Positions 2,860 to 40,583 of a stretch of DNA of 43,786 nucleotides are shown in pieces. The notes under the pieces were generated by a model that searched no databases, was not told the origin of the DNA, and worked only from the letters and a program-made list of their open reading frames with translations. Every line of letters starts with the position of its first letter. Within the stretch, counting starts at the first letter, position 1. The position numbers and the translations under genes are program-made. The DNA is taken from assembly GCA_947089095.1 (NCBI GenBank), contig CAMUJB010000007.1, positions 1 through 43,786 of the forward strand. Direction: 5' to 3'. Source of the DNA: an uncultured Clostridia bacterium. Lineage in GTDB: Bacteria > Bacillota > Clostridia > Lachnospirales > Lachnospiraceae.

Positions 2860-5800
2860 TTAATTAAAATAACATTTTTTAATTTCACTGGTTGAAATTT
2901 CTTCTAATCCCTGAGCAACTACATACTCTATCATATCAGGCTCTACCGTCCGAATAAATAATAGTGCATCTTCCTTAACATCAATATGAATCTCTTTATA
3001 AAGCACATTTTCAATTGGCATCTGTTCCATCTTAGAATCTGCTATAGGATTGTTGGTATAATAGATACGAACCACTTCTCTTGTAGCCCCTTGGAACGGA
3101 ACCCACTTTTTATACTCAATTTCAGCCGGTGAAAACTTACAGTCAAAATAATGTCTGTGATCTCTTCCTAAATAATAGTGGAAACGGGACTGCTGCAATG
3201 CATCGGTTTCATAATTTTTTTCAATTTTAATTGAACTTCCCGGACGGCTCTTTAACAGTCCATATGCTACTCCTGTTTTTGCATTTGGAACATATTCTTC
3301 TGTATTTTCACTCTCTCCCGTCAGCGGATCAATCAATTCAAAATATGCATTTCCTATTTCATCTGCCATTCTCTTAGATTTGCTGTAATATTCTTCAATC
3401 TTCTTTTGGAACAATTCTTTTACAAATATAGATTTACTGGAATTTCCTGCTAAAAAGATATAAATCTTATTCTCTTCTTTTTTTGTTTTCTCTTTAGATA
3501 AAAACATTTTAATTAAGCATTGGAAGAAACTATCAATTCCTTTTTGAATCCGTTTTTTAATTAATTCTACTAAATCCTGACTGGAAAATTCTAAAATACA
3601 CTGCGGCACAGGTTCTCCATTCATATTGTATAGAGAAACAACAATTCCTTCTTTATCAACTTCATTTTGTGCAGATTCATTGTCTAATTGGTATTTCTTT
3701 CTCCAACCCTGCTCCTGATGCCATAACGGACGCAACTCTTCTTTTAAAATCGACATATTTCTTCTTGCAATCTGAGAATTGATTAATAATGTCTCACTTC
3801 CTGCAAAACTATTCTCTCCAACTGGCAAAGTAAAGGTAATCTTCTTCTCCCGAAATACCTCTAAGTTTTTCTGATATACCTGATAAGCCAGTAATTCCAA
3901 TATATTTTCGCCGCCCAGTGTAACATCCGAATCTGCCCCAAAACATTCTAACACATAGTCATAGGCTTCTCTTTCGTACTCTTCTTCTGTTGCACCTCTG
4001 CAGATTCCAAAATCAAAGTCAGTTGTTCCTCCTCCAAAATCAAAAATTCCATACATAAACTGTTCTGTCTCATCCTTTGGCTCTAGATGACTTTGTTCCA
4101 ACGCTGTTACTGCATATGCTGCCGGCTCGCTGATTCCTAATTTTACCTGGAACCGTTCCATACATTCGGGATCACTCAGTATACTAGAAGGCAGAGATTT
4201 TTTAATTCCTTCATAAAAACTATTGGCTATAAAATCTCTTACATCTTTTGAATATCCAACCGGAAATGTCATTAGATAATTTAAGTAAATACCGTTCCGC
4301 ATATTGTTAATATATAACCCAATATAGTAAGCATACAATTCAATCGGATTGACAATTCCCTCTGTCATCTCAATATGCTCCCCTAAGTAATATTCTTCTT
4401 TTTGCTTATCCTTAATCAGTACACTTCCTTTTTCCCGATTTGCCCACTGTTTTAATTCATTAAAATAGGCATAAAAATCATCCGGCTTACAATTTCGAAA
4501 ATCTTCATAGGCATCATAAGAAACAAAAATATCATTGCAGGAAGTATGCGGTCTGCCAGCTTCTTTTTGATAATCTTCCATAAATTTTTTTACATTTGTA
4601 AATTCAATAATAGTTGGATTTTCGAAATCTTCTTCTTTTACTTCATCACTTAAATTTCCTGTTCCAATTCGAATCGGCACAATCCGGTTCGTAGCATCCT
4701 GACGAACAACGACTGTACTTTTCGTTCCAAAATCAATGCCAACTACACCATTTTTAATATCTAATTTCGGATCTCTTGCAATTAAATTCTCATAACGGAT
4801 TGTCTCACTTTCTGAAAAATTATTCTCTTTTCTGTCTTCCGTCCATTCTAAAGTTTCGGTACCCGATTCTTCACTCTCTTTTCTTGCTTCAAATAATTCC
4901 CAATGTCCTCTGATAATATCAAATAAAATATCTTTATCATATGGTTCTAAACGGCATCTATTTTTATCACAATCTAATAATGTCTGTATTTTTTCCATTT
5001 CTTCGTCTACTTCCCCTTCTCCTTGTATCGCATCTGTTTCTTTTATTTTTTCAATTTCTTCTATATTTTCATTTTCGGCTTTTTCGGTTTCTTTTCGCTC
5101 TTCTGTTTCTTCTGTCTTTTTATTTTCCCTACTTATTATTTTTGTCTCTTCTGCTTTTTCCGTTTTTACCTTCTCTATTTTTTGAATATTTTCTGGTTGC
5201 TGCTGTTCTGCTGCCTTTTCTGGAATTGATTTTAACTGCTTTTGTTGCTCATTAGAACTTTGGTCATTAGAACTTCTTTGCATCTCCTTCTGTTCTGGTA
5301 TTTTATTTTGTAATTCCAACTCCTGCTGATTTTTTAAGTTTTTTGATTCTGCTTTAGAAATTTCTAATTCTATAGATATTTCTGGTTCCGACATCTTAGA
5401 AATTTCAGACATTTCTGATTTATTAACAGATAATAATATCTCTGATTCTTCTAAATTCTCTTGAATTTCTGGCTCTAATACTTCTAATTCTATAGAAATT
5501 GGTTCTTCCTCTACCTCTTCTGCAGCTTCTGATTCTATAGAAATCGGCTCTTCTACTATCTCTTCTGCTTCAAAAGAGATTGGTTCTTCCTCCACCTCTT
5601 CTGCTGCTTCTGATTCTATAGAAATTGGCTCTTCTATTATCTCTTCTGCTTCAAAAGAAATCGGTTCTTCCTCTATCTCTTCTACAGCTTCTGGTTCTAT
5701 AGAAATTGGCTTTTCTACTATCTCTTCTGCTTCAAAAGAAATCGGTTCTTCCTCCACCTCTTCTGCTGCTTCTGATTCTATAGAAATCGGCTCTTCTATT

Positions 5801-7215
5801 ATCTCTTCTGCTTCAAAAGAAATCGGTTCTTCCTCTACCTCTTCTGCTGCTTCTAATTCTATAGAAATCGGCTCTTCTACTATCTCTTCTGCTTCAAAAG
5901 AGATTGGTTCTTCCTCCACCTCTTCTGCTGCTTCTGATTCTATAGAAATCGGCTCTTCTATTATCTCTTCTGCTTCAAAAGAAATTGGTTCTTCCTCTAT
6001 CTCTTCTGCAACTTCTGATTCTATAGAAATCGGCTCTTCTATTATCTCTTCTGCTTCAAAAGAAATTGGTTCTTCCTCTATCTCTTCTGCAACTTCTGAT
6101 TCTATAGAAATCGGCTCTTCTATTATCTCTTCTGCTTCAAAAGAAATTGGTTCTTCCTCTACCTCTTCTGCAATTTCTGGTTCTATAGAAATTGGCTCTT
6201 CCTCTATCTCTTCTGCAGCTTCTGGTTCTATAGAAATCGGTTCTTCCTCTACCTCTTCTGCAACTTCTGATTCTATAGAAATTGGTTCTTCCTCTATCTC
6301 TTCTGCAACTTCTGATTCTATAGAAATTGGCTCTTCCTCTATCTCTTCTGCTGCTTCTGGTTCTATAGAAATCGGTTTTTCCTCTACCTCTTCTGCTGCT
6401 TCTGATTCTATAGAAATCGGCTCTTCTACTATCTCTTCTGCAGGTGCTTGATATAATGAAGATAATTTCGATGTTCTAACTGTTTCTTCCTTCATTAATT
6501 GTTCCGTCTCTTCTAGAACAAGTTCTTTCTTATCCTCCTTTTCCACTATTTCATCCATTTTATTTCTTTGTAAAATAAAATCTTCAAAATCAATATTATG
6601 AAAATTATTACTTAAAAATTGCATCATTTTCCAACTGTCTTTTGAGGTATACAATGCAGATGGCGTTAGACCCATCTTTGCCCAAAGATAGATATCATAA
6701 TTCCAGGATTCTATATCTTTTCTTTTATATTTTTCTTCTACACGATAGATCTGCAAAATTGTTCCCTCTTCATTCTTCTGAAGACGGCGTATTTTTCTAC
6801 GTTCCTCATCATAAACCATGCCATTTTTTAAAAAAATCTTTTTCTTTCGGCATCTTTCTCCAAGTCCGGCAGCTCCAAATGTCTTTGGCATATTAGAAAT
6901 AGGCAGATAAGGAATAATCTGTTCTGCTTCCTCTTCTTTTAAATAATCCCAGACAATCCGCCCAGAATTTATCAAAATCGGACTTCTTTCCGGTCTTTTG
7001 TCTATCCGATAACTATTCTCTAGATACTTTTGTTCCATCGGAATAAAAATGTCTGTAGCCCTATGCTGATACCAGGTTCCTTCCAAACTGACTAATCGAA
7101 TAAATCCATTTACCCAATTACTTGGCGATTCAAAGATCGTGCGAATGTTGGCTTCCATATGGCAGCATTTTTCCCATATCTCTTTTTTCTCCAAGATACT
7201 CCATTTTTTCTCCAT
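2860..7215 (-). CDS. Giant 1451-aa multidomain protein: unknown N-terminal domain, acidic tandem-repeat linker, K/E/Q-rich low-complexity segment, Hsp70/actin-fold ATPase domain, and an unknown C-terminal domain
   Basis: Three Hsp70 NBD motifs are recognisable: VVGIDFGTKSTVV (phosphate-1, compare DnaK GIDLGTTNS), FDFGGGTTDFDFGI (phosphate-2, compare DLGGGTFD), and IFLAGNSSKSIFVKELF (adenosine motif, compare LVGGSTRIP). SD gaggtag precedes the ATG, and the stop TAG of the upstream gene lies inside this SD. Confidence 0.75.
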   Translation of the reverse strand: MEKKWSILEKKEIWEKCCHMEANIRTIFESPSNWVNGFIRLVSLEGTWYQHRATDIFIPMEQKYLENSYRIDKRPERSPILINSGRIVWDYLKEEEAEQIIPYLPISNMPKTFGAAGLGERCRKKKIFLKNGMVYDEERRKIRRLQKNEEGTILQIYRVEEKYKRKDIESWNYDIYLWAKMGLTPSALYTSKDSWKMMQFLSNNFHNIDFEDFILQRNKMDEIVEKEDKKELVLEETEQLMKEETVRTSKLSSLYQAPAEEIVEEPISIESEAAEEVEEKPISIEPEAAEEIEEEPISIESEVAEEIEEEPISIESEVAEEVEEEPISIEPEAAEEIEEEPISIEPEIAEEVEEEPISFEAEEIIEEPISIESEVAEEIEEEPISFEAEEIIEEPISIESEVAEEIEEEPISFEAEEIIEEPISIESEAAEEVEEEPISFEAEEIVEEPISIELEAAEEVEEEPISFEAEEIIEEPISIESEAAEEVEEEPISFEAEEIVEKPISIEPEAVEEIEEEPISFEAEEIIEEPISIESEAAEEVEEEPISFEAEEIVEEPISIESEAAEEVEEEPISIELEVLEPEIQENLEESEILLSVNKSEMSEISKMSEPEISIELEISKAESKNLKNQQELELQNKIPEQKEMQRSSNDQSSNEQQKQLKSIPEKAAEQQQPENIQKIEKVKTEKAEETKIISRENKKTEETEERKETEKAENENIEEIEKIKETDAIQGEGEVDEEMEKIQTLLDCDKNRCRLEPYDKDILFDIIRGHWELFEARKESEESGTETLEWTEDRKENNFSESETIRYENLIARDPKLDIKNGVVGIDFGTKSTVVVRQDATNRIVPIRIGTGNLSDEVKEEDFENPTIIEFTNVKKFMEDYQKEAGRPHTSCNDIFVSYDAYEDFRNCKPDDFYAYFNELKQWANREKGSVLIKDKQKEEYYLGEHIEMTEGIVNPIELYAYYIGLYINNMRNGIYLNYLMTFPVGYSKDVRDFIANSFYEGIKKSLPSSILSDPECMERFQVKLGISEPAAYAVTALEQSHLEPKDETEQFMYGIFDFGGGTTDFDFGICRGATEEEYEREAYDYVLECFGADSDVTLGGENILELLAYQVYQKNLEVFREKKITFTLPVGENSFAGSETLLINSQIARRNMSILKEELRPLWHQEQGWRKKYQLDNESAQNEVDKEGIVVSLYNMNGEPVPQCILEFSSQDLVELIKKRIQKGIDSFFQCLIKMFLSKEKTKKEENKIYIFLAGNSSKSIFVKELFQKKIEEYYSKSKRMADEIGNAYFELIDPLTGESENTEEYVPNAKTGVAYGLLKSRPGSSIKIEKNYETDALQQSRFHYYLGRDHRHYFDCKFSPAEIEYKKWVPFQGATREVVRIYYTNNPIADSKMEQMPIENVLYKEIHIDVKEDALLFIRTVEPDMIEYVVAQGLEEISTSEIKKCYFN
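5470..6450 (-). repeat. Near-perfect 84-nt (45 + 39 nt) tandem repeats inside the giant ORF, encoding EEPISIESE(A/V)AEE(V/I)EE and EEPISFEAEEI(I/V)E units about 20 times
   Basis: The nucleotide repeats ctcttctgc(t/a)gcttctgattctatagaaat(c/t)ggctcttc are almost identical copy to copy. The protein segment is extremely acidic and disordered-looking. Confidence 0.85.
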
Positions 7216-8006: not shown

Positions 8007-8373
8007 TTTCCAATCTCCTATTTTTTATGCTCCGTCACTTCCCACCTAAAATAAATTTTTATATTCCTAAGCGAAATCATAACATCTCAATTATTCTATC
8101 ACACAATTTCCAAATATACAACATAAGAAAAAACATTCTGAGAAGAAAACACATGGTTCTTAATTTCATACCAATTTTTAGTCAATCCATACCAATTTTA
8201 ACCTATCAAGGAAGTAGCAGAGCAGATTCCGAATTTCCTTTGACCAAATAATCAATCTTAAAAAACTCTGAAAGGCAAATTTTACAGTCAAATTTCGATA
8301 AAATAATAGATGACTTTTAACAGAATGTCCTGTAGAATAAAATAAAAATTCAAAATCTAAGGAGTAAAAAATA

Positions 8374-8907: not shown

Positions 8908-8933
8908 AAACTACAGATACCCCCTACCTGACA

Positions 8934-8990
8934 CAAGGAAGTCCCCCCACCTCTTTCGCCTTCACGGCTTCGAAACGGGGGACTTCCTTG
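8934..8990. repeat. Copy A1 of the palindromic repeat family A (caaggaagtcccc ... ggggacttccttg hairpin), in inverted orientation relative to A2
   Basis: Perfect 13-14 bp stem. The internal approx. 30 nt is the reverse complement of the A2 internal segment, with substitutions. It lies between the convergent GNAT and BlaR1-like genes. Confidence 0.6.
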
Positions 8991-9001
8991 ATAGGTTAAA
9001 A

Positions 9002-10612
9002 TTACCTTTCGTTACTTACAGGTATTTCCTCTGTTTCCCCAACAGCCCGTTCTAACAGTTCTGTTATTTCTTCCTCCGTCATATAAGAAACACCTGTAAT
9101 CTCTCCTTCTGCATTTCGAATAATTTTAATGCTTGCCGTTCCTTTTGAATTGATATCAAGCATATAAAACGAACTGTCAGGACGCTGATCCTTAATAATG
9201 TTGATTAATTCACCCTGATAATAATAAGATTTCCCATTTTTTTCAATACCATAAGCTGCATACTCCTCAATAAGTGCGGTATCGTCCCAATCCCAGTCTT
9301 TATCGTCCCAGTCAAACCCCCAATCTTCATCATTCCAATCCCCATCGTCCCAATCAAACCCCCAATCTTCATCATTCCAATCCTTATCGTCCCAATCAAA
9401 CCCCCAATCTTTATTATTCCAATTCCCATCCTCCCAGCCAAAATTCCAATTTTTATTATTTCCATTCCAGCCAATATCCAAATTTTTATCAGAAACATAG
9501 CTATCCATTTCATGTCTTTTCTGTTCTGATATTAAAATTTCGCTTTTTTCAGCAGAATCGGAATGGTTTGCTGAAGCAGTTGGATAAACACCAACAAAAG
9601 CTGCTCCAAAGAGTAAACACAGTGTAGATATACCTGTAAAAATCCGAACCGTCTTTGTTTTTTTCTTAAAATTCATAATTGCACCTAACCTTTCTTTTAA
9701 TTGTTTCGCTCCCTCAGTCAAAGTTACCGATGTGAACGATCCTTTACGGAGATGATCGATCTTTAAAAATAAAAGCAAGACATCTCCATACTCACGTCTT
9801 ACGCTGTCATCAAGCATGGCTATAACTGCTTCATCACATGACAATTCACACGCTTTATTTACTTCTTTTTCAAGCAAATAAACAAACGGATTAAACCAAT
9901 GAATACAAATTACAAGCTGTATCAGCCATTTATAAAACATATCCCGCCGTTTGTAATGATTTAATTCATGCATAAAAATATAAGATAACTCTTTCTCCTT
10001 CCATTCTCTAACAGGCAAAATAATACTAGGACGAAAGAAACCAATCATAATGGGCGATGAAATCAAAGAATTACTATATAATTCTACTCTCGTTTTCATA
10101 CTCTGTTTTTCTTCCAAATCAGACAGCAAATTCAATATTTTTACATCTGATATCTCTGTATTGCCAACTTTCATATATTGAATAAAGCCTTGATAAATTG
10201 TCACTTTGCGGACAAAAAGAACTACTGCAAATACTGACCAAATAAAAAAGAGACACGCATATCTATCAAATAACTTCTGTTTAGCAGCATTATTTACAAT
10301 TATATTTTCATTTTCTAGTACCTGTGGTCGTATTGGTTCGTTGTTATCTGTATTTACTACAGCAGACAGCTTAGAACCTGCAGAATTCTCATTTGTTATA
10401 ACAACTGTACGAAACAGTTGAAACAAGCTTCCTACATTTATTGTATCAGGTGTAAAAGGAAGCAAAAACCGCAGCACAACAATGATCCAAATATAATACT
10501 GCCAACGCCTGCTGAACTTATTTTTATATAATGGTTTGAATCCTAAAATAAGCAATAGCAACAGTGTACCGGAAATAGACAGTGACAATACTATTTTCAT
10601 AAATTCATCCAT
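9002..10612 (-). CDS. BlaR1/MecR1-family M56 peptidase-type membrane sensor with a W/D-rich tandem-repeat region
   Basis: N-terminal TM helices, then the M56 zinc motif FMHELNHYKRRD (HExxH). Four repeats of DWGFDWDD(K/G)DWNDE follow. No BlaI-like repressor gene is adjacent. Confidence 0.75.
   Translation of the reverse strand: MDEFMKIVLSLSISGTLLLLLILGFKPLYKNKFSRRWQYYIWIIVVLRFLLPFTPDTINVGSLFQLFRTVVITNENSAGSKLSAVVNTDNNEPIRPQVLENENIIVNNAAKQKLFDRYACLFFIWSVFAVVLFVRKVTIYQGFIQYMKVGNTEISDVKILNLLSDLEEKQSMKTRVELYSNSLISSPIMIGFFRPSIILPVREWKEKELSYIFMHELNHYKRRDMFYKWLIQLVICIHWFNPFVYLLEKEVNKACELSCDEAVIAMLDDSVRREYGDVLLLFLKIDHLRKGSFTSVTLTEGAKQLKERLGAIMNFKKKTKTVRIFTGISTLCLLFGAAFVGVYPTASANHSDSAEKSEILISEQKRHEMDSYVSDKNLDIGWNGNNKNWNFGWEDGNWNNKDWGFDWDDKDWNDEDWGFDWDDGDWNDEDWGFDWDDKDWDWDDTALIEEYAAYGIEKNGKSYYYQGELINIIKDQRPDSSFYMLDINSKGTASIKIIRNAEGEITGVSYMTEEEITELLERAVGETEEIPVSNER
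9270..9480 (-). repeat. 42-nt coding tandem repeats (DWGFDWDDxDWNDE units) inside the BlaR1-like gene
   Basis: Repeated gtcccaatcaaaccccc(a)atcttcatcattccaatcc units can be read directly in the sequence. Confidence 0.65.
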
Positions 10613-10774
10613 TTTCTTTTCTCCAGAAGATTTCCATTTTTTAGTTATTTTTCGAAAAAATATCCCGCTGTAACAAGATTGATATAAAACTTATCTTAAC
10701 ATTATGTAGGTATGTATCTATCTTAACACTTTGTAGGTAATAATGCAATACCCCAAAAAAATTTTTAACCTCAT

Positions 10775-10928
10775 CAAGGAAGTCCCCCGCTTCTAAGCCG
10801 CTAAGGCGAAAGCGGTGGGTGGGGACTTCCTTGTTTCAGTGGGAGTGCAGACTCCCACTGAAAAGCTGCGATAGCAGCTATGAGGTTAGGAGCAAGTAGC
10901 GAAGCGGATTGCGAATATCCGATTTGAC
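10775..10928. repeat. Composite palindromic repeat: A2 hairpin (10775-10833), secondary hairpins (cagtgggagt/actcccactg and gctgc/gcagc), and module B2 (ggagcaagtagcgaagcggattgcgaatatccgatttgac)
   Basis: The same A and B modules recur at 8934, 19634-19709 and 23778-23873 in different orders and orientations. All copies are intergenic. Confidence 0.6.
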
Positions 10929-11029
10929 TATTTTAGAAAAACTAAAAATGTTTCAACAGCAGCTTTCTTCTCTATTTTTTTACGAAATTTCAGAAACGTA
11001 TTTTCCTCTATTGCATAATTAAGGACACA

Positions 11030-16561: not shown

Positions 16562-16793
16562 GCCAGAGTGCAGTAGAGCAGCACTGTTCCGCTCTACGGA
16601 AAGCAGAACTTCTAAGACTTCTGAATAGACGTGTATACCACCGGACGGATCGGGGTGCAATTCGCCCGTACAGCGGGCTAAACACACCCCTTTTTTGCCA
16701 TTCAAGAATGGCAAAAATCCTAGTGAATCGACAGAAGTCTAAGAACTTCTAGCTTTCCTCCGAAGTCACAGTGCTGCTCTACTGCACTCTGGC
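16562..16793. mobile_element. MITE-like palindromic element C1 (232 nt) with perfect 26-bp terminal inverted repeats and nested sub-hairpins
   Basis: TIR gccagagtgcagtagagcagcactgt / acagtgctgctctactgcactctggc. Internal IR pairs: agaacttctaagacttctg / cagaagtctaagaacttct; ggggtg..cacccc; tttttgccattcaagaatggcaaaaa. A diverged inverted copy lies at 19830-20075. Confidence 0.55.
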
Positions 16794-18070: not shown

Positions 18071-19546
18071 ATGCAAACGGAATTTGTAGTGCAAACAAAA
18101 AATCTTTGTAAGGTATTTGCCGGAAAGGAGGTTATTCACAACTGTACCATGTCTGTTGAGAGGGGAACAATCTATGGATTTTTGGGAAAAAACGGAGCCG
18201 GAAAAACGACAGTATTCAAAATCCTGTTAGGGTTGTTAAAACCCACTATGGGCGAAGTAAACGTTTTAGGTATGGACAGCAGCAAAAACAATTTGGAAGT
18301 ATTAAGGCGAACAGGAAGTCTGATAGAAACACCGATATTCTATGAACATCTGTCTGCTATGGATAATCTGCAATTACATCTTGACTATATGGAAATGAAT
18401 GGGGGAGAAATTGCGGAAACTCTTAAAATGGTAGGCTTATCAAATGTTGGTACACAGGCTGTTTCTACGTTTTCACTTGGTATGCGTCAACAGCTGGCGA
18501 TTGCACGAGCAATCGTACATAAGCCGGAACTTCTTATTTTAGACGAGCCTGTAAATGGTCTTGACCCCGTTGGAATAAAAGAAATGCGGAAACTGTTTTG
18601 TAAATTGGTAAAGCAACAAAACATTACCATTTTGCTTTCAAGCCATATCCTTTCTGCATTTGAGTCTCCCACTGTTCAAGCGTGTGTTCCTCAAATACAG
18701 TCTAGCGATAACATCATCAAGGGTAATGCGGTTGTAAATCAAGTAGCTGCGGTGGCTGCTCTCATTGCCCCGATACTTGGAAGTGTTCTCTATACTACCT
18801 TTGGCCTAAAGCCGGTTCTGTATGCAGGAGTTTTATGCTTTTTTGTTACGGCGGCATTTGAATGTTTTATTAAGCTGGAATACATACCAATAGATAACAG
18901 TAAAGGTCTTTTATCCATTATCAAGAGTGATTTTCTAACAAGTATGCGATTTATGGGCAAAGAACAATCCTGTATTTTAAAAATGTTGCTTTTAAGCACA
19001 TTGGTTAGTTTTTTTGTAATGGGAACAGCTATAGTAGGTCTGCCTTATATTGTGCGGAATGTACTGGACTTAAACGCTGAATATTATGGTTTTGCAGAAA
19101 GTGCGTTGGGATTGGCTGCAATCATTGGGAGCATTGCAGCCGGACTATTAACAGAGAAAATGAAACCCGGAAAACTATCAATCGTAGTTGTTGTTCTTGG
19201 AGTATTTCTTTTTCCGGCGGGCATTATTTTTCTTCTTCCAACAACAGCAATTACACGATACATTGTCAATATTATTTCGTTTTGTGGTATACAGATTGCT
19301 GCTTGCATTTTTTCTATTTTTGCTCTCTCTATAATACAGCAAAGAACCCCTAACCATTTAACGGGAAAAGTGATGGCATATGTCGCTACTATTTCTATGT
19401 GTGCCCAACCGTTAGGGCAAATGGTTTACGGAATATTGTTTGATAAATTTAGCAATGCCGTTTTTCTTGTATTACTTCCAACGGGAATACTTGTCTGCAT
19501 GATAGGTTTACTTGCCGTAAACTTTTTCAAAAGTTTAGAAAATTAG
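18071..19546 (+). CDS. Chimeric ORF: ABC-transporter ATP-binding domain (through the H-loop) fused in frame to the C-terminal half of an MFS transporter; probable deletion-derived fusion or pseudogene
   Basis: Walker A GKNGAGKTT, signature FSLGMRQQL, Walker B LLILDEP, and H-loop SSHIL. The remaining approx. 290 aa are polytopic MFS-like helices (LIAPILGSVLYTTFG ... LTGKVMAYVATISMCAQPLGQMVYGILFD). No ABC permease gene is present. Confidence 0.6.
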   Translation: MQTEFVVQTKNLCKVFAGKEVIHNCTMSVERGTIYGFLGKNGAGKTTVFKILLGLLKPTMGEVNVLGMDSSKNNLEVLRRTGSLIETPIFYEHLSAMDNLQLHLDYMEMNGGEIAETLKMVGLSNVGTQAVSTFSLGMRQQLAIARAIVHKPELLILDEPVNGLDPVGIKEMRKLFCKLVKQQNITILLSSHILSAFESPTVQACVPQIQSSDNIIKGNAVVNQVAAVAALIAPILGSVLYTTFGLKPVLYAGVLCFFVTAAFECFIKLEYIPIDNSKGLLSIIKSDFLTSMRFMGKEQSCILKMLLLSTLVSFFVMGTAIVGLPYIVRNVLDLNAEYYGFAESALGLAAIIGSIAAGLLTEKMKPGKLSIVVVVLGVFLFPAGIIFLLPTTAITRYIVNIISFCGIQIAACIFSIFALSIIQQRTPNHLTGKVMAYVATISMCAQPLGQMVYGILFDKFSNAVFLVLLPTGILVCMIGLLAVNFFKSLEN

Positions 19547-19633
19547 AGGGATATTGGTATAGAATGATTTGAATGGGTACATTGCCCTGTTTGCGGAAAT
19601 AAAACAAGATTGTGAATACGGAAAGATACGAAA

Positions 19634-19709
19634 GTCAAATCGGATATTCGCAATCCGCTTCGCTACTTGCTCATAACCTCATCAAGGAAGTCCCCGCTTC
19701 TAAGCCGCC
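19634..19709. repeat. Repeat modules B3 (reverse orientation) and a truncated A3 hairpin arm
   Basis: gtcaaatcggatattcgcaatccgcttcgctacttgctcataacctcat followed by caaggaagtccccgcttctaagccgcc. Confidence 0.55.
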
Positions 19710-19829: not shown

Positions 19830-20075
19830 GCCAGAGTTGGGAAGCAATATCTTTCTGTTGTGACTTCGGAGGAAAGTTAGAAAATCTTAGGCTTCTGTCG
19901 ATCTCTAGGATTTTTTGCCATTCTCGAATGGCAAAAAAAGGGGTGTGTTTAGCCCGTTGTACGGGCGAATTGCACCCCGGTCCGTCCGGTTGGATACAGG
20001 TAAATGCAGAAGCCTTAGATTTTCTTACTTTCCGTAGAGCGGAACAGCAGAAAGATATTGCTTCCCAACTCTAGC
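19830..20075. mobile_element. MITE-like palindromic element C2, a diverged inverted copy of C1 with its own 28-bp TIRs
   Basis: TIR gccagagttgggaagcaatatctttctg / cagaaagatattgcttcccaactctagc. The core ttttttgccattctcgaatggcaaaaaaaggggtgtgtttagcccgttgtacgggcgaattgcacc is the reverse complement of the C1 core. Confidence 0.5.
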
Positions 20076-23662: not shown

Positions 23663-23777
23663 ATTCTTTTCTCCTTATTACTAATAATCTGATTCAAAGT
23701 GGGTTTTTAAATAAAATAGGATGCCGATTCTAAGTATAAAAAAATTTAGAACCGATATCCCATTCGATTTCAGTATA

Positions 23778-23873
23778 GGTTATGAGCAAGTAGCAAAGCG
23801 GATTGCGAATATCCGATTTGACCCTATCAAAGAAGTCCCCCTTCTAAGCCAGAAAGCGGCGGGGGACTTCCTT
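23778..23873. repeat. Repeat modules B4 (direct) and A4 hairpin
   Basis: ggttatgagcaagtagcaaagcggattgcgaatatccgatttgac, then caaagaagtccccc...gggggacttccttt. Confidence 0.55.
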
Positions 23874-23939
23874 TAACTAAAAAACGGCTTTTTATCAAAT
23901 TCCTTGTCTTTTCTAATGTTAATGTAAGACATCATCTTT

Positions 23940-29388: not shown

Positions 29389-29522
29389 TGTATCGAAGGA
29401 GGTTTCTTTGCTGGGGCCGTTTGCACTAAGGCTTCCTCGCAGCGGACACATAAGGCACGAAAATACCGTGCCTAAGTGCCGGCGGGAAGCAATACCCCTG
29501 CAAAGAAACCTCCTTCGATACA
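29389..29522. repeat. Palindromic structured element D1 (134 nt) with a 22-bp perfect closing stem and internal sub-hairpins
   Basis: gtatcgaaggaggtttctttgc ... gcaaagaaacctccttcgatac. Internal hairpin ggcacg-aaaatac-cgtgcc. D2, 380 nt away, is its inverted copy. Confidence 0.6.
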
Positions 29523-29611
29523 AGCTGTCTGTTCCTTCCTATTCATTTTGCACCATTTCTGCTGTATAAAATTTATCCATATTTTCAACTAAACGATTCG
29601 CCTTAATATTC

Positions 29612-29662: not shown

Positions 29663-29768
29663 ATATCAAATCAATAGCATAAGCATATCTCTACTCTATA
29701 TCTATTCACCGTTTATTAAGAATACAAAATCAAAACAGGATTTATCTGCCAACCGGTCGGTATATACA

Positions 29769-29909
29769 GTAGGTATGGAAAGGGAATTCTCTGCAGGGGT
29801 ATTGCTTTCCGCCGGCACTTAGGTGCTGTCTTTTAGCACCTTATGTGTCCGCTGCGAAAAAGCCTTAGTGCAAACGGCCCCAGCAGGGAATTTCCCTTTC
29901 CATACCTGC
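29769..29909. repeat. Palindromic structured element D2, an inverted diverged copy of D1 with compensatory stem substitutions
   Basis: aggtatggaaagggaattc ... gaatttccctttccatacct closing stem. The internal hairpin ggtgct-gtctttt-agcacc differs from the D1 hairpin ggcacg/cgtgcc at 2 positions on both strands, so pairing is preserved. It lies 50 nt downstream of the pnp stop. Confidence 0.6.
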
Positions 29910-29958: not shown

Positions 29959-32043
29959 CTACCGAACATCCTTTATACTAAAACTAATTCGCCCCATCTT
30001 ATCCTTCCCAAGGCAAACTACCTTTACAATATCTCCCAAAGTAAGCACATCTTCCACATGTTCAATCCGTTCCTTAGAAATCTTAGAAATATGCACCATT
30101 CCTTCTTTTCCAGGGGCAAACTCTAAAAAGGCTCCGAATTCCTTAATGCTGATTACTTTCCCGGTATAATACTTTCCTTCTTCAAAATCCGAAGCAATCA
30201 TCTGGATATATTCTACTGCTTTTTCCATCTTCGCCCGATCCGTTCCGCAGACAGAAACAGCTCCCTCATCTGTGATATCAATTTTTACATCGGTTTCTGT
30301 AATAATCGCATTGATGGTTTTTCCCTTTGGTCCGACTACATCTCCTATTTTAGCCGGATCAATCATAACCTGTATAATTTTCGGTGCATATATCCCTACC
30401 TCTTTGCGGGGTTCTGCAATCGCAGGTTTCATACAATGCTCCATAATATATAACCTTGCTTCTCGGCAGCGTGCAATCGCTCCCTCTACAATCTCTCTTG
30501 TCAGACCATGTATTTTAATGTCCATTTGGATTGCGGTTATTCCAGCATCTGTACCAGTTACTTTAAAGTCCATATCGCCGAAAAAGTCTTCCAGCCCCTG
30601 AATATCTGTTAATAAAAGATATTCTTCATCTGTTTCGCCTGTTACCAATCCGCAGGAAATGCCGGCTACCATTTTCTTGATTGGCACGCCTGCTGCCATA
30701 AGGGACATACAAGAAGCACAGGTGGATGCCATAGAAGTAGAACCATTGGATTCAAATGTCTCCGAAACAGTACGAATCGCATATGGGAATTCTTCTTCGG
30801 AAGGAAGTACTGGTACTAAAGCCCGTTCAGCAAGTGCACCATGTCCGATTTCTCTTCGTCCCGGACCTCTGGAGACTTTTGTCTCTCCTACAGAATAGGA
30901 CGGGAAATTGTAGTGATGCATATAGCGTTTGGAGGTTTCATTGACATCTAATCCGTCTAGTTTCTGTGCTTCAGAAAGTGGTGCTAAAGTACATACATTG
31001 CAGATCTGGGTCTGTCCTCTGGTAAACATAGCAGAACCATGTACTCTTGGAATAATATCTATTTCTGCAGCAAGCGGACGAATCTGGGTGATTTCTCTGC
31101 CGTCTGGACGTTTTTGATCTTTTAAAATCATCTTTCGAACGGTCTTTTTTTCATATTGATAGACTGCTTCATCTATCAGAGGAAGCCATTCTTCTTTTTC
31201 TGCAAATGTTTCTAACAGGTTGTCTTTTAACAAGCGGATTCGCTCTTCTCTGACCTGTTTTTGTTCTGCAAACATGACTTTTTCCATTTCTTCCGGGGGT
31301 ACAATTTCTTTAATGGCAGTGAATAATTCTTCCGGTATGGCACAACTGGTATACTCATGTTTTGCTTTTCCACACTCTGCTACAATGCTGTCAATAAATG
31401 CAATTACTTGCTGATTGACTGCATGGGCAGTATAAATAGCCTCTATCATCTGTGCTTCTGGTACTTCATTGGCTCCTGCCTCTATCATAATGACTTTTTC
31501 TCTGGTGGAAGCAACCGTTAATTTTAAATCGGAAATGGTGTTTTGTTCTGCATTTGGATTGAGCACAAATTTCCCGTCAATTAATCCAACCTGTGTGGTT
31601 GCACATGGACCGTCAAACGGAATATCGGAAATCGCTACTGCAATAGCAGAACCTAACATAGCCGTTAATTCCGGGCTGCACTCTGGATCAACCGACATAA
31701 CCATATTGTTGATTGTTACATCATTTCTATAGTCTTTTGGAAATAATGGACGCATAGGACGGTCAATTACACGGGAGGTTAGAATTGCATTTTCGGATGC
31801 TTTTCCCTCTCTTCGATTAAAACCCCCTGGAATTTTTCCTACTGCATATAATTTTTCTTCATATTCTACACTAAGCGGGAAAAAATCAATTCCCTCTCTT
31901 GGTTTTTCGGATGCAGTTGCTGTAGATAATACTGTGGTATCTCCATAGTGCATAAATGCAGCACCATTCGCCTGAGCTGCTACACGTCCTATGTCTACCC
32001 GCAGCGTCCTTCCAGCTAATTCCATCTCAAAACTTTTATACAT
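29959..32043 (-). CDS. pnp: Polyribonucleotide nucleotidyltransferase (PNPase)
   Basis: Two RNase-PH domains, a KH domain and a C-terminal S1 domain (GKVISIKEFGAFLEF). Start taken at MYKSFEMEL, where GGAGG lies 5 nt upstream. The ORF track begins 4 codons earlier. Confidence 0.95.
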   Translation of the reverse strand: MYKSFEMELAGRTLRVDIGRVAAQANGAAFMHYGDTTVLSTATASEKPREGIDFFPLSVEYEEKLYAVGKIPGGFNRREGKASENAILTSRVIDRPMRPLFPKDYRNDVTINNMVMSVDPECSPELTAMLGSAIAVAISDIPFDGPCATTQVGLIDGKFVLNPNAEQNTISDLKLTVASTREKVIMIEAGANEVPEAQMIEAIYTAHAVNQQVIAFIDSIVAECGKAKHEYTSCAIPEELFTAIKEIVPPEEMEKVMFAEQKQVREERIRLLKDNLLETFAEKEEWLPLIDEAVYQYEKKTVRKMILKDQKRPDGREITQIRPLAAEIDIIPRVHGSAMFTRGQTQICNVCTLAPLSEAQKLDGLDVNETSKRYMHHYNFPSYSVGETKVSRGPGRREIGHGALAERALVPVLPSEEEFPYAIRTVSETFESNGSTSMASTCASCMSLMAAGVPIKKMVAGISCGLVTGETDEEYLLLTDIQGLEDFFGDMDFKVTGTDAGITAIQMDIKIHGLTREIVEGAIARCREARLYIMEHCMKPAIAEPRKEVGIYAPKIIQVMIDPAKIGDVVGPKGKTINAIITETDVKIDITDEGAVSVCGTDRAKMEKAVEYIQMIASDFEEGKYYTGKVISIKEFGAFLEFAPGKEGMVHISKISKERIEHVEDVLTLGDIVKVVCLGKDKMGRISFSIKDVR

Positions 32044-32284
32044 CGTTTCCTCCATTCTCCGCTGTCTGCGGAATCTTATTTTCTTAATTTTCTAATCTGT
32101 CTGTCCCGCCGGAGAGTTCCGAAACTACTGAAAAATACAGAAAATAGGACTATTTCGTTATTTCTTATTAGATGTTTATTTGTTTATTTCTTTATTTCTT
32201 TTTTCTGTCCTTTTCAGTGGTCTCGGCTAACTTTTTTCCTTTGGGAGTCTTTTGTTTTTTCCTAATTTTCTTTTCCAATTTTCT

Positions 32285-37448: not shown

Positions 37449-39032
37449 TTAACCAAGAAGAGAAAGAACTCCTTGATTGCTCTGATTTGCTTGAGCTAAC
37501 ATAGATTGACCAGCTTGAGCCAAAATATTATTATTCGCATATCTTACCATTTCAGTAGCCATATCCGTATCACGAATTTGACTTTCAGCACTTGTCGTAT
37601 TCTCCACTACATTATCTAAGTTATTAATTGTATGCTCTAAACGGTTTTGAACAGCACCAAGGGCAGCTCTTTGATCAGAAACTTTATTCAATGCCGCTTT
37701 AATTGTTTCAATTGCATTTAATGCATTTGTATCATCTTCTCCATTTACCTTTAAACCAGTGACACCAATTGCCTTAGCACTCATAGATTTTATATCAAGA
37801 GAAATCTGATTATTGGTTGTAGCATCTGCACCTACATGAAGATTCAAAGTTAAAGCACCTACATCAAATTTATCTGTATAACTTAGCAGTCTATCCACGT
37901 CAGCCTGTGTTGCCAACTGACGGTCAGTTGCACCCTCTCCTGTCTTTAAATACAGTTCTGCATTAGGATCTAACTTACCATTGTTGTTAATATATTTATC
38001 TAAACCATTCGCAGCAATCTCATTACCATCCCTATCAATAAATTGAACTACGCCCTTACTTGTATAGTCAGAATAAGCGACAGAATCTACAGCAAGTTTT
38101 ACAGGAGCAAGCGTAGAATAATACTTCGATATATCTGCAGCAGTCGCACCAATATCTGTTCCTATCTCTTTCCTATTTCCATCTGAATCATATACTTCTG
38201 TCTTCAGCTTATAATGTGCACCAGTATCAGTTACAGTATTACTAGCAATTGCAACTGCTTGACTCTTTATATCACCTGTTCCAGCACTAGAAGAATAATA
38301 AGTTGCTGTTGAATCATATGCTTCCCCAGAAGCAACTTGATAATATTCATCTCCCACTTTCTTCAAATACTTACCTGTACTATCCGTGAAAACTGCTTCC
38401 GAATTATTTAAGAAATTACCAGAATCACTAGATGCAATCGCTACTCCATAGGTTGCACCTGTACTGTCACTATAATATACTTTTGTTGAATCAACTGCTG
38501 TTTTCAACGTCCCTTTCGATAAAGTCTTAACGGTATTATCTTCTACATAGTAAAGGTCTTGGCTAATCACATCTACTTCTTTATATTGGAAATTTGTGTC
38601 TTTTGCAGCATTTACATCCCCTTTTAACAAATAAGTTTCATTAAACTTCGTTGTCTCCGATACACGATCGATTTCTGTTACCAACTGATCGATCTCAGCC
38701 TGAATCGCATCTCTATCAGAAGAAGAATTCGTTCCATTTGCTGCCTTTACTGCCAATTCATTCATTCTCTGAAGCATATCCTGTACTTCTGTCAACGCAC
38801 CTTCTGCTGTCTGTACGGCACTGATTCCGTCCTGTGCATTAGAAGAAGCCTGTGTCAGTCCTCGGATCTGTTTTCTCATTTTTTCGGAAATTGCCAAACC
38901 TGCTGCATCGTCTGCTGCACGATTGATCTTATAACCAGATGATAATTTTTCTGTGGATTTTGCCTGAGCCTTGGTTGTGATACCTAGCATACGATTAGAA
39001 TTCATTGCTGTAAGATTGTGTTGTACTACCAT
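37449..39032 (-). CDS. fliC: Flagellin with a large variable central domain
   Basis: Conserved N-terminal D0/D1 ([17 protein letters not shown] ... [17 protein letters not shown]) and C-terminal D1/D0 ([16 protein letters not shown] ... [25 protein letters not shown]). SD aaggagg precedes the ATG. Confidence 0.9.
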
Positions 39033-39584: not shown

Positions 39585-39620
39585 TGCCAATATGAAAATG
39601 CAACATTTGTTAGTAAAATG
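39585..39620. repeat. Palindromic 15-6-15 site 1 (aaaatgcaacattt-gttagt-aaaatgttgcatttt); candidate recombinase core site or operator
   Basis: Perfect 15-bp arms around the 6-nt spacer gttagt. It lies between divergent csrA and the recombinase gene. It matches the inverse of site 2 (40383-40419) at 33 of 36 positions. Confidence 0.55.
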
Positions 39621-39664
39621 TTGCATTTTTAAGAAAGCAAAATTCAACGAACGGAGGATCTATC

Positions 39665-40255
39665 ATGAGCACAACACAGCCTATTAAAAGCAAAGACGCA
39701 CTGAACCAATTTAAAAATTATTATTTGCTGCAAAAACCTCAGCCAAGAAACTATACCCTGATTATATTGGGACTAAATACAGCACTGCGAATCTCCGATA
39801 TTCTCACATTAAAATGGAACGATATCTATGATGACCATACTAAAACCATGAAAAAACATTTAGAAGTAATAGAACAAAAGACCGGAAAATCCCGCACGAT
39901 TGCATTAAACCGCTCTATCTGCACCACCCTAAAAAACTACCTTTCGTATTCCTTCCAGGAAAAACCCTATGAAAAAGAGCAGTATCTCTTCTTAAGTCAG
40001 AAAGGAAAGAATGAGCCAATCAGTCGTTCTCAAGCCTACCGAATTATCTGTACTGCTGCCAAAGCATCTGGACTGGATCAACATATCAGCTGCCACTCTC
40101 TAAGAAAGACATTCGGTTATCATGCGTGGAAACAGGGAACCCCTCCAGCCCTTTTAATGGATCTTTACAATCACTCCTCCTACAGCATTACCAAGCGATA
40201 TTTAAGTATTGAACAAGACGAAAGAGATGAAGTGTATTTAAAAATTACACTCTAA
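39665..40255 (+). CDS. Small tyrosine site-specific recombinase (FimB/FimE-sized, 196 aa)
   Basis: Catalytic residues in order: R (ALRISDIL), H-x-x-R (HSLRKTFGYH), H (LYNHSSY), Y (ITKRYL). SD ggagga lies 7 nt upstream. A strong terminator hairpin aaatgccgcttatc/gataagcggcattt follows at 40272-40307. Confidence 0.8.
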   Translation: MSTTQPIKSKDALNQFKNYYLLQKPQPRNYTLIILGLNTALRISDILTLKWNDIYDDHTKTMKKHLEVIEQKTGKSRTIALNRSICTTLKNYLSYSFQEKPYEKEQYLFLSQKGKNEPISRSQAYRIICTAAKASGLDQHISCHSLRKTFGYHAWKQGTPPALLMDLYNHSSYSITKRYLSIEQDERDEVYLKITL

Positions 40256-40271
40256 TCCAATCACAAAAAGA

Positions 40272-40307
40272 AATGCCGCTTATCGACAGAGGATAAGCGG
40301 CATTTCC
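40272..40307 (+). terminator. Rho-independent terminator of the recombinase gene
   Basis: gaaatgccgcttatcgacagaggataagcggcatttc followed by a T/A-rich run. Confidence 0.6.
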
Positions 40308-40382
40308 CTTGAAAAATAAAAAATTTAAAAAAATTCAAAAACGCTATAAAGTATTTTATAAAAACACCGATATAAGGAATAT

Positions 40383-40419
40383 AAAAATACAACATTTTAC
40401 TAACAAGTGTTGTATTTTT
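40383..40419. repeat. Palindromic site 2 (aaaaatacaacatttt-actaac-aagtgttgtattttt), an inverted copy of site 1
   Basis: Its spacer actaac is the reverse complement of the site 1 spacer. The two sites bracket an approx. 760-bp segment that contains the recombinase gene. Confidence 0.55.
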
Positions 40420-40583
40420 ATTTTTTATAAAGTATCTTCCTTTTCTATTCTACTAAACAGCATAAACAAAAGCAAATATTTTTATACATATCTATCATAT
40501 CTTATAAAATTCAAGAAAATTTTTCATATTTTTCCTAAATTTTCTGTATTTTACAACACATTATACGAATCAAATATTCTATC

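Follow-up and report, generated by a model that had tools for sequence, protein, structure and literature searches.

Intergenic multi-hairpin repeats of gut Lachnospiraceae as a probable family of non-autonomous IS200/IS605-type elements

What are the strongly folding repeats that lie between the genes of this uncultured Lachnospiraceae bacterium, and how did they come to be there? The 43,786-nucleotide stretch of DNA analyzed here (the window) carries two repeated sequences, termed modules A and B, which an earlier note had placed at four intergenic sites and described as shuffled in order and orientation. The A and B sequences are indeed present at all four sites and are far more frequent than expected by chance: the 13-nt stem CAAGGAAGTCCCC of module A occurs seven times in the window (≤2 mismatches) against 0.53 expected, a count reached in 0 of 100 shuffles, and for the 39-nt module B three occurrences (≤3 mismatches) compare with 0 expected. 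On the evidence below, the repeats probably constitute a family of non-autonomous IS200/IS605-type elements of the kind named PATEs (palindrome-associated transposable elements). The kind of element is a known one, while the family itself is apparently undescribed in gut Lachnospiraceae; as the earlier note had supposed, no prior description of it was found in Rfam, in plasmid and phage collections, or in literature searches.

A single repeat unit and its derivatives in the window

Once the loci recovered by a genome scan had been oriented and aligned, A and B proved to be not independent modules but the two ends, left and right, of a single unit of ∼160 nt (158-160 nt). The order is a TTTAAC target, a 4-5-nt linker, hairpins P2, P3, and P4, the linker complement followed by GTTA, and module B. 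Module A corresponds to the long hairpin P2; P3 reads TTTCAGTGGGAG...CTCCCACTGAAA and P4 reads AGCTGCGATAGCAGCT in the aligned units, and module B is laid out as GAGCAAGTAGC-N3-GCGGATTGCGAATATCCGC-TT(G/A)AC, with a hairpin between GAGCAAGTAGC and TT(G/A)AC. A closing helix, P1, pairs the flanking TAAC with the internal GTTA. The unit is gene-less, consists of hairpins throughout, and at 158-160 nt is too short to encode a transposase. Its 5' end, C(N3-4)AT-CAAGGAAGT, is not complementary to its 3' end, ATATCCGCTTGAC, so full units have no terminal inverted repeats. Both ends instead carry subterminal hairpins, P2 beginning 4-5 nt inside the left end, and the hairpin of module B stopping 5-6 nt before the right end; these are dissimilar in the main subfamily and have similar stems only in the GAGGAAGT subfamily. 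A near-invariant GTAG lies 5' of the B hairpin, 4 nt from its foot, and the two ends share the direct repeat CAAGGAAGT / GAG(C/G)AAGT.

Window copies were scored with a covariance model of the family (R1). The full-length unit occupies positions 10770-10929 on the plus strand (192 bits, E = 5e-46; alignment A1) and comprises the linker CTCAT (10770-10774), P2 or module A (10775-10833), P3 (10834-10863), P4 (10864-10879), ATGAGGTTA (10880-10888), and module B (10890-10928), ending TTTGAC(T). This copy had been read as A joined to B; both modules are there, but the two conserved hairpins P3 and P4 separate them, and a closing helix, TAACCTCAT/ATGAGGTTA, encloses the whole. The TTTAAC target motif (10764-10769, plus strand) lies directly 5' of the unit and, by comparison with the empty site of L143 described below, is placed outside the element proper. 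The 510-nt gap upstream of the BlaR1-like gene, which contains the full-length element, has no BlaI-type repressor gene; it also has a separate direct repeat, ATCTTAACA(T/C)T(A/T)TGTAGGTA, occurring twice at 10693-10745.

The remaining copies are incomplete. The copy at 8203-8244 (plus strand, 31.8 bits) has lost its interior and keeps only the termini, 42 nt in all, reading CTAT-CAAGGAAGTAGCAGAGCAGATTCCGAATTTCCTTTGAC; the TTTAAC before it occupies 8197-8202. A 3'-truncated copy at 8908-8994 (minus strand, 59.5 bits), made up of the linker CTAT, P2 (8934-8990), and a degenerate P3, sits between the convergent BlaR1-like and GNAT genes, with its TTTAAC (9000-8995, minus strand) right after the BlaR1-like stop codon at 9002-9004. 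The site at 19633-19709 (minus strand, 49.6 bits), formerly taken for a reverse-complemented B followed by A, is a single short form, P2-ATGAGGTTAT-B, that is 5'-truncated by a cut inside the P2 loop and has the loop flipped. Likewise, what had appeared as one B+A unit at 23777-23874 is in fact two tandem units: a 5'-truncated copy retaining the remnant of the P1 3' arm and module B, ending TTTGAC (23777-23822, plus strand, 45.6 bits), and a 3'-truncated copy consisting of the linker CCTAT and P2 only (23823-23874, plus strand, 14.4 bits for P2 alone). The second begins directly after the TTTGAC of the first, which occupies the usual place of TTTAAC. All four sites of the earlier count are therefore real, but with the overlooked copy at 8203-8244 and the tandem pair the window holds six copies, which lie on both strands.

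Truncation and tandem insertion, together with a flipped P2 loop and the loss of DNA between short direct repeats, account for the odd arrangements, and the tandem, truncated, and 42-nt forms may accordingly be viewed as putative decay products or terminal-only derivatives. Five other contigs (L021, L027, L032, L036, and L038) have the 42-nt form as well, at unrelated loci; the deletion junction of this form falls in the direct repeat CAAGGAAGT / GAG(C/G)AAGT, and it would arise by deletion between the two repeat copies. Elsewhere, the P2 loop is flipped between perfect arms in L021 and L015, and further microhomology deletions occur in L007 and in a second copy in L142. In L008 and L012 the forms are reduced to P1-P2-P1' and are perfect palindromes, TTTTAAC...GTTAAAA.

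Several neighboring features of the window were recorded in their own right. A second repeat family, element C, of ∼230-245 nt with 26-32-nt terminal inverted repeats, occurs in opposite orientation at 16562-16793 and 19830-20075 around TetR and ABC/MFS genes, and its right-hand copy lies ∼120 nt from the end of the truncated copy at 19709. The ORF at 18071-19546 is an unusual chimera of an ABC-transporter ATPase domain (residues 23-162) with an MFS transporter domain (residues 193-446), possibly a fusion made by rearrangement. A hairpin-forming leader of the Gx/NusG_II gene (23680-23760, minus strand), GGATGCCGATTCTAAG...TTAGAACCGATATCC, is kept in the L131 relative (Gx protein 79% identical) where the remaining spacer is not, and is a candidate cis-regulatory element. 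Inverted repeats of 43 nt, 88% complementary, bracket a 196-aa tyrosine recombinase (Phage_integrase) at 39589-40424, beside the flagellin gene (37449-39032); this is a candidate invertible switch, and a homologue occurs in L002. Just upstream of the PNPase gene (29959-32055, minus strand) is a large inverted repeat whose 132-nt arms (29404-29535 and 29759-29890) are 82% complementary and separated by 223 nt. Finally, a 1451-aa ORF (2860-7215), for which the source collection lists no Pfam hit, includes at 5400-6490 a long tandem-repeat array with periods of 81 nt and 45 nt.

Insertion site, spread, and genomic context

Evidence for mobility comes from a viral contig, L142, found by scanning for module B. 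There a full unit interrupts a gene whose halves, taken together, align as a single piece with a phage minor capsid protein, and an intact homologue of the split gene (P0057, phage minor-head-like, 97% identical) is present on L143. The empty site in L143 reads GGAGTTTAAC followed directly by GTATATGC, with TTTAAC already present in the target immediately before GTATATGC; the filled site in L142 reads GGAGTTTAAC, then CGAATCAAG...CCGCTTGAC(C), then GTATATGC. The insert is thus 158 nt long, CGAATCAAGTAAGTCCCC...CCGCTTGAC(C), and lies directly after TTTAAC. In this one pair, which belongs to another subfamily and to a viral contig rather than to the genome of the window, target duplication is absent apart from a 1-nt C junction ambiguity, and the 3' TT(G/A)AC comes with the element and is not a target duplicate. 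Across all loci, TTAAC precedes 46 of ∼60 recognizable 5' ends and a further six are one base off. A second copy in L142, of ∼50 nt (1530-1585), is preceded by TTTAAG instead of TTTAAC and has an internal deletion between ATTGCGAA of the P2 loop and ATTGCGAA of module B. Two other insertion mechanisms were considered and set aside: integron attC-type recombination, as the junction does not fit cleavage between G and TT, and IS110-type insertion, as there is no conservation 3' of the insertion point.

A stem-pair scan covering one genome per species recovered 32 exact-stem loci in 12 assemblies, mostly Lachnospiraceae, with 12 of the 32 derived from one mouse-gut MAG. The carriers are Lachnospira, Eubacterium, Blautia, Clostridium, and Hominisplanchenecus, together with unclassified Lachnospiraceae, Firmicutes, and bacterial bins, and one bin labelled Eggerthellaceae. 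The covariance model found many more copies in the seeded loci, often clustered, and several loci lie <100 nt from a contig end. The same model found 0 copies in a negative control of 366 kb of metagenome loci bearing BlaR1 relatives (50-69% identical), and 0 copies in the syntenic rnfB-Gx-MatE loci of relatives whose Gx proteins are 79, 73, and 65% identical and which lack the element between rnfB and the Gx gene. The rnfB-Gx spacer is 277 nt in the window versus 154, 192, and 1022 nt in these relatives, respectively, whose flanks are too diverged to place the exact junction. An empty site was also sought in the lineage of the window, among contigs with identical GNAT, MatE, and RnfB proteins, where the spacing was the same throughout. 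The plasmid collection gave no match and the phage collection matched only nine unannotated faecal contigs; scans of viral contigs for the left and right ends returned few true copies and no autonomous element.

All 35 copies that were checked (35/35) are intergenic and none lies within an ORF; the earlier description of a dispersed, intergenic, hairpin-forming family was right. Orientation relative to the two neighboring genes is near uniform (9/9/8/6 for the four combinations), and all-against-all clustering of the ORFs around copies identified no recurrent neighbor protein family. The earlier note had suggested that the repeats serve as terminators or mRNA stabilizers. Such a role finds no support, given the random orientation, the lack of a T-run in the elements, and the terminator that the MatE gene has of its own at 11062-11034, before the element. 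That the repeats are passive cis elements of this type, or alternatively classical MITEs moved by a DDE transposase, is highly improbable. The long hairpin arms could pass as inverted repeats and the P1-P2-P1' forms are perfect palindromes, but a MITE of that class is at odds with a filled site that has no target duplication and with full units that have no terminal inverted repeats.

Being gene-less, without terminal inverted repeats or target duplication, and with hairpins near the ends and a fixed 5' motif, the family falls within the published descriptive definition of PATEs (PMC3119063), and its target-specific insertion without duplication in the L142/L143 pair points to elements of the IS200/IS605-PATE kind rather than to MITEs with inverted repeats and target duplications such as bcr1. 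The earlier comparison with REP, BOX, or bcr elements was in this respect a loose one. PATEs are gene-less derivatives of IS200/IS605 elements, and those of Haloquadratum include 52-bp terminal-only versions that arose when repeats mediated the core's deletion (PMC3119063), which the 42-nt form resembles. Meers et al. described the transposon-adjacent (TAM) and transposon-encoded (TEM) motifs of IS605 elements and gene-less, PATE-like copies that are mobilized in trans and often encode omega RNAs (PMC10055086).

By this precedent, a Y1 HUH transposase (TnpA) supplied in trans would recognize the folded hairpins and cut out the top strand, from TTTAAC to TTGAC, as single-stranded DNA, which the same enzyme would then re-insert; its target motif would be the adjoining TTTAAC, and its cleavage motif the TTRAC that the element encodes. 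As no transposase partner was found, we only infer mobilization by a Y1 HUH enzyme. A crude motif screen for Y1 and TnpB zinc-ribbon signatures detected no tnpA or tnpB in the ∼300 kb of copy-bearing loci, and no tnpB was found adjoining any copy. Next to a truncated copy in L028 are two ORFs, of 124 and 388 aa, whose sizes fit a tnpA-tnpB pair; however, the smaller lacks any Pfam match and the larger is a methyltransferase. The PATE assignment is favored by the copy number and spread of the family, its random orientation, the lack of a recurrent neighbor, the strand asymmetry of its helices detailed below, and the precedent of an IS200/IS605 TnpB with a TTTAA TAM in ISAam1 (PMC12908284). Against it stand the missing tnpA and tnpB, the single filled/empty pair, the unlike hairpins of the main subfamily, the conservation of P3 and P4, the TAAC-GTTA helix P1, and the occurrence of window copies on both strands. 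The left and right ends of IS608-type elements are usually alike, and the palindromes near the two termini of PATEs often are.

A conserved fold and a possible RNA function

A 176-nt stretch containing the full copy and its flanks is predicted to fold into a four-way junction (-53.2 kcal/mol, z = -11.9). For a MAFFT alignment of 20 full units, RNAalifold predicted 47 pairs, 12 of which show compensatory changes, in line with the covariation that the earlier note had proposed to look for. In a specified 54-pair structure, 95.7% of cells form a standard pair, a fraction that falls to 38-47% on sliding the partners, and none of 500 shuffles attains the observed paired fraction or the covariation score. 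The invariance of the lower P2 stem in the aligned set is an ascertainment artefact, the search pattern having required that stem; a diverged copy found by the covariance model only (L017, 2733-2906) keeps P2 and P3 with a different stem, AAGCATTCCCCC/GGGGGGATGCTT. P3, P4, and the closing helix are conserved, P3 and P4 with compensatory changes. Within the helices, G-T cells outnumber A-C cells (48 versus 11), an excess suggesting that it is the TTTAAC-to-TTGAC strand whose folding is important.

To our knowledge, the known TnpA mechanisms require no hairpins of the P3/P4 kind, and we are not familiar with a helix between a flanking TAAC and an internal GTTA from characterized IS200/IS605 ends. 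Conservation of P3, P4, and the closing helix beyond the needs of TnpA leaves room for an added RNA function, such as that of a guide-RNA scaffold. We considered whether the unit is first of all a gene for a structured RNA that travels on a mobile element. The RNA would be an omega RNA scaffold used in trans by TnpB or a protein derived from it, and its guide would be the 16-20 nt that follow TTGAC(T). This proposal is compatible with the PATE assignment, to which it adds an RNA function, and we regard it as possible though unlikely. It would explain the four-way junction with its 12 covarying pairs and high paired fraction, unmatched by slid partners or shuffles, the conservation of P3 and P4 though unneeded for transposition, and the G-U excess on the very strand that would be transcribed from left end to right end, although G-T wobble is tolerated in single-stranded DNA too. 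Precedents are the omega RNAs that PATEs often encode (PMC10055086) and ISAam1, an IS200/IS605 element whose TnpB has a TTTAA TAM (PMC12908284).

Several observations weigh against an omega RNA. Searches of Rfam with the whole window and with the element alone, at gathering and permissive thresholds, returned nothing credible (best hit on the element alone 18.3 bits versus a gathering score of 36), nor did the IS605-orfB motifs, which are among the families in Rfam, give a match. No conserved promoter was seen upstream of the units, the motif screen gave no tnpB in copy-bearing loci, and junction-less forms recur as well. The narrower suggestion that the four-way junction with the B hairpin represents a new class of trans-acting, omega-RNA-like guide scaffold is doubtful, somewhat more so than the general one; each copy would then be a guide-RNA gene, with the DNA immediately beyond TTGAC(T) as its guide, for a TnpB, IscB, or nuclease-dead TnpB-like protein encoded elsewhere in these Lachnospiraceae genomes. 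Other structured RNAs fared no better: ARAGORN detected 0 tRNA or tmRNA genes in the window, and a tRNA-like or group II intron fragment was dismissed because the element is too small and the sole match weak and sub-threshold.

The hallmarks of REP elements and their RAYT proteins are an imperfect palindrome of 20-40 nt, a 5' GTAG, arrangement in doublets, and a RAYT gene flanked by REPs. Repeats of the REP/REPIN type, kept by a single-copy domesticated RAYT instead of an IS-borne TnpA, would account for the near-invariant GTAG 5' of the B hairpin and for extragenic copies that are numerous and locally clustered. We consider this improbable, since the GTAG stands 4 nt off the hairpin foot, the units are of 160 nt with five helices rather than 20-40-nt palindromes, neither inverted doublets nor a RAYT gene was seen in the copy-bearing loci, and the literature on RAYT, REPIN, and Firmicutes yielded nothing.

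Significance and comparison with known systems

The probable PATE family described here has practical consequences. With several copies at contig ends, it breaks metagenome assemblies of common gut Lachnospiraceae, and, as the split phage head gene of L142 shows, the element can interrupt genes. For Lachnospiraceae, it moreover provides a clean case in which single-strand transposition guided by a target motif can be tested. A TnpB-type RNA-guided system using a TTTAAC motif in gut anaerobes would be indicated if the junction turned out to act as a guide-RNA scaffold; if not, the matter is one of annotation, and the intergenic hairpins are best masked as mobile repeats instead of being treated as regulatory RNAs.

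Small, intergenic, modular, and strongly folding repeats with variable module content are known from BOX of pneumococcus, bcr1 of the Bacillus cereus group, and Correia-type MITEs. Unlike the present family, which shows neither feature, bcr1 and Correia elements are described as bounded by terminal inverted repeats and as duplicating their targets (TTTAT and TA). REP/REPIN elements with RAYT share with it extragenic hairpins, a GTAG 5' of a hairpin, and presumed HUH Y1 chemistry, but the units here are far longer and multi-hairpin, without doublets and with no RAYT found. Like the omega RNAs of TnpB elements such as ISDra2 and ISAam1, the unit presents a structured segment of ∼100-150 nt ending at the right end on the transposon top strand, and it has a TTTAA-type TAM in common with ISAam1; here, in contrast, there is no TnpB gene nearby and no Rfam match, and an RNA role is a candidate only.

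Compared with PATEs such as HqIRS46 of Haloquadratum and the gene-less ISGst-related elements of Geobacillus stearothermophilus, to which the family is likened by description, the host group differs (Lachnospiraceae and relatives), the autonomous parent has not been found, the interior is a conserved four-way junction whose closing helix takes in the flanking target, and the hairpins of the main subfamily are unlike. [quoted passage not shown]
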